Origin: a virus | IMG/VR virus record: IMGVR_UViG_3300027864_000003 | Reading direction: 5' to 3' (one strand) | Length of the DNA stretch: 64,000 bases | Part shown: piece after piece, positions 5,076-19,739 of the stretch | Layout: each line of letters begins with the position of its first letter | Numbering within the stretch: position 1 is the first letter of the stretch | The notes under the pieces: generated by a model | Told to the model about the DNA's origin: nothing | Database searches by the model: none | The model's input: only the letters and a program-made list of their open reading frames with translations | Program-made: the position numbers and the translations under genes

Positions 5076-5147
5076 GGCAGGGTGAAGCAACGGCGGCTTA
5101 TGTGGCTCATCACCACAATGTCAGAGGTTCAAACCCTCTGCCTGCCC
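5076..5147 (+). tRNA. tRNA-Met(CAT), atypical
   Basis: Cloverleaf: GGCAGGG/GCCTGCC acceptor (7:66 mismatch), AAGC/GCTT D stem, TGTGG-CTCATCA-CCACA anticodon arm, AGAGG-TTCAAAC-CCTCT T arm. Confidence 0.8.
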
Positions 5148-5164
5148 GAATGCCATTAACAAAA

Positions 5165-5360
5165 GTGGCGGACAAAGAGTGCCGTCTGTCTCGCTGGTGA
5201 GAGTAACCAGCTCGCTTCTGGTGTAGGCGTGAAATAAAACCAGATATTTTGCGCGGTATAGAAAATTGCGCTAACGGGTAGCAAACGGTATGCGGTTTGT
5301 CCGGGGTGGCATTAAGCAGCAACCACAGGTAGAACCTGTTTCGGCGGTATGTCTGTGGTG
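5165..5360 (+). ncRNA. GC-rich structured intergenic RNA (five consecutive hairpins) inside the tRNA cluster
   Basis: Stems 5193-5198/5206-5211, 5217-5222/5239-5244, 5251-5256/5266-5271, 5281-5286/5295-5300, 5322-5328/5353-5359; no credible ORF. Confidence 0.5.
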
Positions 5361-5366
5361 ATTTTT

Positions 5367-5491
5367 GGGGATGTCGTATAACGGCAGTATCGATTTCGTG
5401 GAAGTATCGCCCATAAACGCGGATAAAGGCGAAAGGTAAACGATAACGAGGTATCCTCCTCGTGGCGCAGGTTCGACTCCTGCCGTCTCCA
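5367..5491 (+). ncRNA. tRNA/tmRNA-like RNA (125 nt) with G3:U70 pair and expanded anticodon region
   Basis: Acceptor GGGGATG/CGTCTCC-A, D-arm-like GTAT-AACGGCA-GTAT, T arm GCAGG-TTCGACT-CCTGC, extra hairpin ACGAGG/CCTCGT. Confidence 0.65.
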
Positions 5492-5493
5492 TT

Positions 5494-5577
5494 GGGTTAG
5501 TAGTTTAGTGGTAGAACATGGCGGTTTCCTTGAAACCTCCTTTACGCCAGACGGCGGTTCGACTCCGTCCTAATCCA
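5494..5577 (+). ncRNA. tRNA-like RNA (84 nt) with G3:U70 pair and 21-nt anticodon loop
   Basis: Acceptor GGGTTAG/CTAATCC-A, D arm GTTT-AGTGGTA-GAAC, stem TGGCG/CGCCA, T arm GGCGG-TTCGACT-CCGTC. Confidence 0.7.
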
Positions 5578-5602
5578 GTCACTAAATTTATTGGAGGTTG
5601 TT

Positions 5603-6529
5603 ATGTCAAATGTTTTATTTAACAGAGGAATTAAGGCGTTAAATGATGCCGGATTCCAAGTCGTGGGCTGTACTCGTAAGCCGAATTCGAGAGTGTTCAA
5701 GTTCAAGGTAACTCCTGACGGTCCGCCGCCGAAAGAAGAAGATCCGGGCTTGAAAATAATTGCAACGATTTTTGAAAAATCGCTTGAAGAAACAATCGGA
5801 AAAAGAACCGATAAACCTTGCGAGAAGCAAAGCGAGAACCAGATCGAAAAGCCCATACGCTTTCCAAAAGAAAATTTTAACATCATGCGGTTATTGGGCA
5901 CTAATGATTGGCACTATCATATCGCAAAAATTCAAAACCTTGCAAAAAGCGAAAAAACAGAGCTGTTTGAAATCGGTGATTATACTCTCGTATCTTTTGA
6001 AGTTCCCGCGGCAGAACATAATGGCGTTAAATTCCCTGCGCTTAAAATTGAAAATGCCAAAGTTGTGATTGTTGAAAAAACTTCTAACAGGGTGATTTTC
6101 AATTTTGATGAAATCATTTTCAAAGCGGCGATAAACGCAAAAGACACAAACAAGGGCGGCATCAGCGAAAGCGCATTGTCATCATATCTGAACAATGAAG
6201 TTCTTGAAGCAATGGGAGTAAAAGAATTTCTTGTTTCCGCAAATAACGGTACAAAAATTACATTGCCGACTGCTTATGAGTTATTCGGCGAGACAGAATA
6301 TTGGGAATCAAAATCCAATTTCTTTGAAGAACCGCGTCAGTTTGATTACTTCAAAAACGAAAAAAATCGCGTGAAAACTTTTGAAGATGAAACGCATTGG
6401 TACTGGACATCATCACCTTGCGCTGCGTCCTCCGCTGGCTTTGACAGTGTCTACGCCGACGGAGATGTCAGCAACAACGACAACGCGAGTTCCGTCGGTG
6501 GCGTTGCCCCCGCCTTCTGTGTCGCGTAG
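5603..6529 (+). CDS. DUF6273-like / C-type-lectin-fold protein, candidate DGR target
   Basis: C-terminal LPTAYELFG...WYWTSSP...SVYADGDVSNNDNASSVGGVAPAFCV; GGAGG SD before ATG 5603. Confidence 0.7.
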   Translation: MSNVLFNRGIKALNDAGFQVVGCTRKPNSRVFKFKVTPDGPPPKEEDPGLKIIATIFEKSLEETIGKRTDKPCEKQSENQIEKPIRFPKENFNIMRLLGTNDWHYHIAKIQNLAKSEKTELFEIGDYTLVSFEVPAAEHNGVKFPALKIENAKVVIVEKTSNRVIFNFDEIIFKAAINAKDTNKGGISESALSSYLNNEVLEAMGVKEFLVSANNGTKITLPTAYELFGETEYWESKSNFFEEPRQFDYFKNEKNRVKTFEDETHWYWTSSPCAASSAGFDSVYADGDVSNNDNASSVGGVAPAFCVA

Positions 6530-19249: not shown

Positions 19250-19739
19250 TATCAAAGATATGACAGGGCAAAAATTCGGCAGAATATTAGTAATTTCTTA
19301 TTCTCATATTTCAAATCACGAAGCTATGTGGAATTGTAAATGCGATTGCGGAAAGGAATGGCTTGTATCAGGACATAACTTAAGAGCTGGAAATATTCAA
19401 AGCTGCGGATGTTTACGCAACGAAAATACGGGAAAAAGATTTCTCAAAAAAGGATTATCAACAACACGCTTATACAACATATGGAGAGGAATGCGAAAAA
19501 GATGTAACAACCCAAATGAGAAATCCTATAAGTTTTATGGAGCAAAAGGAATAAAAGTTTGTGAAGAATGGAATGACTTTGAAATCTTTTATGAATGGGC
19601 AATGAACAGCGGTTATACAGATAATTTAACAATCGACCGCAAAGACAATAAAAAAAATTATTGCCCGGAAAATTGTCAATGGCTAACCAGAACTGAAAAT
19701 ACTCGAAAAGCTACTAAAAAAGGAGGTTTAAGACCATGA
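19242..19739 (+). CDS. phage HNH endonuclease-like protein (paralog of 6592-7113)
   Basis: WNCKCDCG...SCGC; KGIKVCEEW...TIDRKDNKKNYCPENCQW. Confidence 0.85.
   Translation: MANIKDMTGQKFGRILVISYSHISNHEAMWNCKCDCGKEWLVSGHNLRAGNIQSCGCLRNENTGKRFLKKGLSTTRLYNIWRGMRKRCNNPNEKSYKFYGAKGIKVCEEWNDFEIFYEWAMNSGYTDNLTIDRKDNKKNYCPENCQWLTRTENTRKATKKGGLRP

Follow-up and report, generated by a model that had tools for sequence, protein, structure and literature searches.

A phage-borne tRNA-shaped RNA with a conserved anti-Shine-Dalgarno loop as a candidate regulatory small RNA

Why should a phage carry an RNA that has the body of a transfer RNA (tRNA) and, where the anticodon loop ought to be, a copy of the 3′ tail of 16S ribosomal RNA (rRNA)? 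The question is raised by an element in IMG/VR virus record IMGVR_UViG_3300027864_000003, a 67.6-kb phage record rated complete, most of which is covered by our window, the 64,000-nucleotide (nt) stretch of DNA analyzed here. The RNA, which we call element 2, matches the Rfam tRNA model (RF00005) with 45.6 bits (gathering score 29) and is likewise called as a tRNA by ARAGORN; our own covariance model scores it at 82.4 bits. In the Rfam alignment its loop appears as a 21-nt insertion in the anticodon loop, and CCA is not encoded at its 3′ end. An original prediction, made from the letters of the DNA alone, had proposed that this loop displays an anti-Shine-Dalgarno (anti-SD) sequence on a tRNA scaffold and could sequester ribosome-binding sites in trans. 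The parts of the element are as follows.

5494..5577, + strand: element 2, 84 nt, tRNA-shaped: acceptor, D, and T arms plus an anticodon-like stem
5519..5523, + strand: UGGCG, the 5′ side of the anticodon-like stem (partner 5545-5549); the helix covaries, with 3–4 compensatory pairs
5545..5549, + strand: 3′ strand of the anticodon-like stem, CGCCA, partner of 5519-5523
5524..5544, + strand: loop replacing the 7-nt anticodon loop, 21 nt, GUUUCCUUGAAACCUCCUUUA
5525..5531, + strand: pyrimidine tract UUUCCUU, which makes up the 5′ half of the loop and nearly mirrors the 3′ half; GUUUCC in most copies
5535..5543, + strand: anti-SD motif ACCUCCUUU, copying the 16S 3′ tail; its conserved core CUCCUUU lies at 5537-5543

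The DNA of the loop reads GTTTCCTTGAAACCTCCTTTA between TGGCG (5519-5523) and CGCCA (5545-5549), in agreement with the loop sequence first given, whose position we checked. Its ACCTCCTTT occurs a single time on the + strand of the whole window. The match to the 16S tail is genuine and extends over 9 nt, with the 16S gene of the likely host genus ending in GGAUCACCUCCUUUCA. The original prediction overlooked GUUUCC, the other conserved half of the loop.

Searches of IMG/VR with exact and degenerate DNA patterns returned only one related phage, and of 56 matches to the pattern AAACCTCCTTTA in this database, 54 proved to be ordinary sequence, mainly ribosome sites read on the opposite strand. The homologue search was then anchored on the protein encoded downstream of element 2, which has 30 relatives at 41–55% identity. 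A tRNA-shaped homologue is found upstream in nine of the ten contigs fetched for these relatives and also in the related IMG/VR phage; protein-anchored scans gave one locus in IMG/VR and none in species genomes. Together with the window this defines a set of 11 copies, picked without reference to the loop motif, on which our covariance model of element 2 was trained. The training copies score 74–92 bits and all 19 copies 45–92 bits; at the same loci and under the same model, ordinary tRNAs reach at most 37 bits and RNAs of the type of the neighboring element 1 reach 25–29 bits. Eight of the 19 copies, two of them a 75-nt variant, came from a motif scan of metagenome and genome contigs followed by the model filter; as they were found via a pattern demanding GGTTTC and CTCCTTT, or via the motif-trained model, they inform on distribution and context and not on conservation. 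In all there are 18 further copies of element 2, located in related phage and prophage contigs, mostly of termite-gut Treponema.

Among the 11 protein-anchored copies, 93.8% of the cells in the alignment pair and 15 of 22 base pairs show compensatory changes. The values are 94.1% and 19 of 22 for an alignment of 19 rows (18 copies and one neighboring ordinary tRNA), in which all four cloverleaf stems covary. When the pairing partners are slid by 1–3 columns, only 33–59% of cells pair, and none of 500 shuffles matches the observed values. Judged by these controls, the cloverleaf of element 2 is under selection. The T loop follows UUCRANY, and the D loop contains GG, in 10 of 11 copies each.

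The loop behaves differently from the stems, every one of which varies. Its consensus across copies is 5′-G UUUCC(U)(C/U), followed by 0 to 9 nt, then (A/U)(C/U) CUCCUUU(U) and a final A/C-3′. CUCC and the next UU are invariant columns in the 11 copies collected independently of the motif, and the anti-SD motif is present in all 19. With the anticodon-like stem closed, a folding constraint that rests on the covariation support for this helix, CUCCUUU is predicted to be unpaired with a probability of 0.99 in the window copy and with a mean probability of at least 0.8 in 18 of 19 copies. The conservation and, in silico, the accessibility of the motif named by the original prediction are thus borne out. 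Because it is kept in 18 homologues while the stems covary, we judge that the anti-SD motif of element 2 is more than a chance occurrence. A small hairpin inside the window loop (GUUUC/GAAAC) is not general among the copies. We also considered and rejected a riboswitch-like three-way switch: its in-loop hairpin GGUU/AACC, a candidate anti-anti-SD, is absent in copies L069, L105, L119, L132, and L133b.

A host counterpart of the loop came to light when we looked for complements of the loop in a Treponema metagenome-assembled genome (MAG) that carries a phage copy, and spotted it on the opposite strand of a match. The host sequence is a hairpin, CCUCCCGG-GUUUCCUCACCUCCUUUUC-CCGGGAGG, followed by a U-run, in which GUUUCCUCACCUCCUUUUC forms the 17-nt loop of a 10-bp (base pair) terminator hairpin. 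Across 23 aligned loci, 6 of the 10 stem pairs show a compensatory change, and the loop, including GUUUCC, is invariant. Of 40 genomes from the genus to which this MAG belongs, 31 contain GGTTTCCTCACCTCCTTT as an exact 18-mer, usually once per genome, and the 17-mer with at most one mismatch is present in 60 of the 301 genomes sampled from the order (∼18 matches for a backwards control). The host RNA is intergenic and usually divergent from an AI-2E transporter gene, its downstream neighbors vary, and Rfam has no family matching it. Its loop opens with GUUUCCUC, identical to the start of the 5′ half of the phage loop, and repeats 11–12 nt of the 16S tail of the host genus (UCACCUCCUUU). Two phage copies, L105 and L133b, have the host loop letter for letter; the window loop differs from it by one C-to-U change, a GAA insertion, and the last base. 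On the basis of this identity and near-identity, the alignment indicates that the phage RNAs present the functional loop of a host small RNA on a tRNA body. The likely hosts are Treponema-type spirochaetes of the termite gut.

The host loci (L235-L263, for example L251:1391-1550:+) encode a chromosomal small RNA, not yet catalogued, in a genus of the Treponema type. Conserved boxes, ACUGAUGAUACGG ... AUCAUCU ... CAGCUGACGUA..UCAGC, precede its terminator hairpin and resemble C/D-box or kink-turn pairing.

How might such an RNA act? The leading explanation, to which we give roughly an even chance, is that element 2 is most likely excised like a tRNA and then pairs with ribosome sites of the AAAGGAG(G) type, and so would serve the phage as a small regulatory RNA on a tRNA scaffold. 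It would be transcribed within an array of tRNA and noncoding RNA genes (tRNA-Met, a ∼200-nt RNA, element 1, and element 2) that leads into the downstream DUF6273 gene. The intact acceptor, D, and T arms suggest that RNase P, RNase Z, and the CCA-adding enzyme of the host would release a stable RNA of ∼85 nt, displaying the open pyrimidine loop 5′-GUUUCC...(A/U)YCUCCUUU-3′ at the place of the anticodon loop. CUCCUUU and flanking bases could then pair in antisense fashion with purine-rich ribosome sites (AAAGGAG[G]), which would be occluded from 30S subunits in the manner of the cuckoo/αr14 and RsaE-type RNAs. Carrying the seed of the host RNA would allow the phage to join or take over the regulon of that RNA. 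Element 2 might in addition reduce expression of the gene that follows it, in the way that the c4 RNA of phage P1 acts on its downstream neighbor.

We looked for target sites of the loop next to the element and throughout the phage. The adjacent candidate site and its gene are the following.

5593..5599, + strand: ribosome-binding site GGAGGUU of the next gene, forming 7 bp with AACCUCC of the loop, 16 nt past the end of element 2
5603..6529, + strand: DUF6273 gene (Pfam), which follows the element in 14 of 19 copies (synteny)

No terminator is predicted between element 2 and this gene. The GGAGGT at 5593 had been put forward as an example of a sequestered site. The site receives no particular support: the duplex of the loop with GGAGGUU (−11.9 kcal/mol) ranks 4 of 86 among the ribosome sites of the window, the flanks show no covariation with the loop across phages, and some copies of the element adjoin no gene. 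The + strand of the window holds 32 GGAGG. A bipartite target, AAAGGAG..GGAAAC, is absent in the phage apart from the antisense strand of the element itself, and has 4 matches in the host MAG (2 in the control), located in unrelated genes. No site in the phage is complementary to the loop over a longer run than the ribosome site of a 118-amino acid gene at 19736 (19719-19738, AAAAAGGAGGUUUAAG), with 11 nt at −15.6 kcal/mol.

Several observations weigh against a trans-acting antisense RNA. Complementarity singles out no specific target among the ribosome sites of the window, and the site that ranks first (gene at 19736) is no more than the most canonical Shine-Dalgarno sequence (SD) there. A loop that permanently shows the sequence of the 16S tail would compete for all SDs, the strong ones of the phage included, which leaves the selectivity of such a regulator unexplained. 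The conserved GUUUCC half has no role in a plain anti-SD model. When folded without constraint, CCUCC can pair with GGCGG of the stem, and the unpaired probability falls to 0.39 in the window copy. Finally, the host was assigned from the binning of a MAG contig and from the habitats in which the contigs were found.

The conserved GUUUCC would be accounted for if the loop of an abundant tRNA-shaped phage RNA were a decoy or mimic that titrates a protein or nuclease normally binding to the 16S 3′ tail or to the host RNA loop, and not mRNAs. We consider this unlikely and still a serious rival. Both loop halves are kept in the phage, the entire 17-nt host loop is invariant even in GUUUCC, which has no SD complement, and the 11–12 nt shared by the host loop and the 16S tail exceed normal SD pairing. 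However, the UCA that extends the 16S identity is not kept in the phage copies, 5 of 19 copies carry UCUCC or ACUCC in place of CCUCC, and no candidate binding protein is encoded beside the element in phages or consistently beside the host RNA. A purely cis-acting leader, in which the anti-SD would silence the adjacent downstream SD in the unprocessed transcript until tRNA-type processing separates the two, appears improbable to us. In its favor, 12 of 19 copies end 21–30 nt ahead of a start codon with a strong SD, GGAGGUU matches AACCUCC in seven copies, one base past the 16S complement, and element and gene are not separated by a terminator. Yet L105 and L133b lie within an array of noncoding RNAs with no gene behind them, the spacer measures ∼75 nt in L061 and L117, and the UCUCC copies face GGAGGA or GGAGGU, which leaves 4–5 bp without compensation. 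The conserved UUU moreover has no A-run as its partner in any SD in cis, and in the host the small RNA stands alone, with a terminator of its own and neighbors that vary.

It is scarcely credible that element 2 is a working or recently decayed tRNA, be it intron-containing, endowed with an expanded anticodon, or a pseudogene with an incidental loop. Genes for tRNA-Lys(CUU) are the best non-member matches of our model in the host (43–45 bits), and their anticodon loop CUCUUAA resembles CUCCUUUA; descent of element 2 from a phage tRNA-Lys is plausible in view of this likeness. Against a decoding function, the homologous loops measure 12–23 nt, and neither a conserved triplet nor a conserved 7-nt anticodon loop with U33 and purine 37 can be recovered from them by removing one segment. 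The anticodons that ARAGORN places in the hairpin loop vary by copy (Lys, Arg, Gln, and Trp). An incidental loop is excluded by its maintenance across copies whose neighboring proteins share only 43–53% identity, and in a host hairpin that is no tRNA. We attach next to no weight to the idea that the element is a YrlA (Y RNA-like) module, or a transfer-messenger RNA (tmRNA) or other alanine-accepting tRNA-like RNA. A YrlA model match of 26.7 bits, far short of the gathering score of 69, bridges the two elements, running from the T arm of element 1 to the D arm of element 2; the joined acceptor halves do not pair, and a TROVE/Rsr gene is absent from the phage. This match was dismissed as an artefact of two tandem tRNA-like genes. 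The window copy does have the G3:U70 pair and A73 of an alanine acceptor, but only 2 of 11 copies and 4 of 19 rows keep G3:U70, and all four bases (A, G, C, and U) occur at the discriminator position.

Between its halves the loop forms a mirror repeat, UUUCCUC / CUCCUUU. Six phage copies and the host loop have it perfect over 7 nt, and seven copies, that of the window among them, agree at 6 of 7 positions. Many variants of the host loop alter the 5′ half alone (UUUCUUC, UUUUCUC, and UUUCAUC), as recovered by a one-mismatch search to which double changes are invisible. The mirror repeat might form a triple-helix clamp, with one half in Watson-Crick and the other in Hoogsteen pairing on the SD purine tract AAAGGAG. 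We regard this as very improbable: four protonated cytosine triples would be needed, and the changes in many host variants are confined to the 5′ half. If it were true, the clamp would capture ribosome-binding sites far more tightly and selectively than plain antisense pairing, and a mechanism resembling the expression and nuclear retention element (ENE) would exist in bacteria and phages, common to the host small RNA and its phage mimic.

Element 2 is the last member of a noncoding array between a helix-turn-helix gene and the DUF6273 gene, which consists of a tRNA-Met, a stretch free of open reading frames (ORFs), element 1, a 2-nt gap, and element 2. The other features of the array are listed here.

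5076..5147, + strand: tRNA-Met (CAU), called by ARAGORN and Rfam; first gene of the conserved array, also present in L061 and L064-L067
5367..5491, + strand: element 1, 125 nt, tRNA-shaped, carrying a long insert and an additional arm; separated by 2 nt from element 2 downstream
5454..5459, + strand: TCCTCC of element 1, spanning the loop and the 3′ arm of the hairpin 5448-5465

Element 1 constitutes a separate RNA family (25.8 bits with model R1), with relatives in L061, L064, L065, and L067. In this family (L061:2082-2174, L064:2055-2177, and L067:2206-2287) the inserts between the D and T arms vary widely, and the RNA measures 82–125 nt. The second anti-SD-like motif of the original prediction, TCCTCC in element 1, is present where it had been placed and is not conserved, as no CCUCC is found at the matching place in four related element-1 RNAs; because of this absence it may well be due to chance. 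A pairing of the element-1 insert with the element-2 loop was seen by eye, in the window copy only. In a BLAST search of GenBank phages, the only similarity lay in the T arm and was to a tRNA-like gene in prophages of Streptococcus. This gene, found in Streptococcus phage LF2 (L003:1448-1526) and in ∼50 Streptococcus prophages, is annotated as tRNA-Tyr in one record and otherwise unannotated. Its T arm and 3′ acceptor strand are 86–92% identical to element 1 over 26–35 nt, and its anticodon arm pairs poorly.

The ORF-free stretch from tRNA-Met to element 1 (window 5165-5360) is strongly conserved in L061, L064, and L105, with the core ...GGUGYAGGCGYGAAA..AACCAGAUAUUU..GCGGUAUAGAAAA..GC.CYAACGGGUAGCAA.CGGUA.GCGGUUUGUCCGGGGUGG. 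It has no Rfam match at E values up to 10 and is probably a genuine structured RNA. Related arrays contain a second conserved hairpin ∼50 nt upstream of element 2, which is absent from the window (L061:2240-2300, L063:2330-2370, L064:2300-2350, L066:2030-2080, L132:4930-4990, and L133:1335-1390). Its stems covary (CCAAUAG/CUAUUGG, CACGG/CCGUG, CAUAG/CUAUG, and GGCGGCGG/CCGCCGCC) around a constant C-rich loop, UUCCCCUCCCAAAUCA, a further anti-SD-like display. The ∼75-nt spacer from element 2 to the DUF6273 start is conserved in L061:2400-2500 and L117:187-270, where it ends in ...AAGUAYAACGGGAAGCCC, and may be a further small RNA element.

The C terminus of the DUF6273 protein resembles the variable region of a diversity-generating retroelement (DGR), and its comparison with the closest homologue (window 6419-6529) shows the scattered differences typical of such a region. 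Such a variable region may have been orphaned or may be served in trans. The notion that the tRNA-like RNA is part of a DGR was discarded, since both a reverse transcriptase and a template repeat are absent from the phage. A related 67.7-kb phage (G327) has an RVT_1 gene, unlike the phage studied here.

Anti-SD loops on small RNAs are an already known way of silencing mRNAs. An anti-SD loop that replaces the anticodon on a complete, covarying tRNA body appears to be undescribed in Rfam 15 and in the literature searched, as does the identity of this loop with that of a conserved, uncatalogued spirochaete small RNA. The tRNA body would provide the phage RNA with free processing and stability from the host tRNA machinery, and the shared loop points to a phage copying the seed of a host regulator. 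Host small RNA and phage mimic form a defined pair in Treponema-type spirochaetes, in which regulation by small RNAs is almost unstudied. Should the loop bind a protein or form a triplex, the significance would be greater.

The closest parallels are the alphaproteobacterial cuckoo/αr14 RNAs (NfeR1 and CcsR), which carry ultraconserved C/U-rich anti-SD loops on variable stems and silence mRNAs through occlusion of the ribosome-binding site (PMC4615179; PMC10746234). The phage element and the host RNA both share with them a conserved anti-SD loop on a covarying stem. The motif differs, being GUUUCC..CUCCUUU here and CCUCCUCCC there, and the 2–4 tandem plain hairpins of the cuckoo/αr14 RNAs contrast with a single loop on a complete cloverleaf; in addition, ours is a phage-borne gene associated with spirochaetes. 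An Rfam scan of element 2 yields no match other than tRNA.

The c4 RNA of phages P1 and P7 is co-transcribed upstream of the gene that it can regulate and is released by RNase P; one of its loops covers the ribosome-binding site and a second loop adds specificity (PMC5320573, citing Hartmann et al. 1995). Element 2 would similarly be a phage small RNA upstream of a potentially regulated gene, for which we propose release by RNase P. Unlike c4, to which it has no sequence similarity, it folds into a cloverleaf, and its loop copies the generic 16S tail, whereas the loops of c4 match private target sites. The Rfam C4 covariance model finds no match in element 2 at the gathering score or at E values up to 10.

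Small RNAs of the RsaE/RoxS type in Firmicutes use C-rich unpaired motifs, including hairpin loops, to pair with the G-rich SDs of several mRNAs. They differ from the RNAs described here in sequence and phylum, and they have no tRNA scaffold. Two antiparallel pyrimidine tracts lie across from each other in the element-2 loop and could hold a purine strand between them, as in the ENE and MALAT1 clamps. The tracts of ENE clamps are rich in U and bind poly(A), whereas this loop would need its four protonated C triples. Finally, tRNA-like processing signals in general offer a parallel, as do the species 1 and species 2 RNAs of phage T4 (rnaC and rnaD), which are stable, non-decoding RNAs encoded in a tRNA array and matured by the tRNA-processing machinery. 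We know of no anti-SD loop or mimicry of a host RNA in these T4 species. Like them, element 2 is a non-decoding RNA residing within a phage tRNA array.
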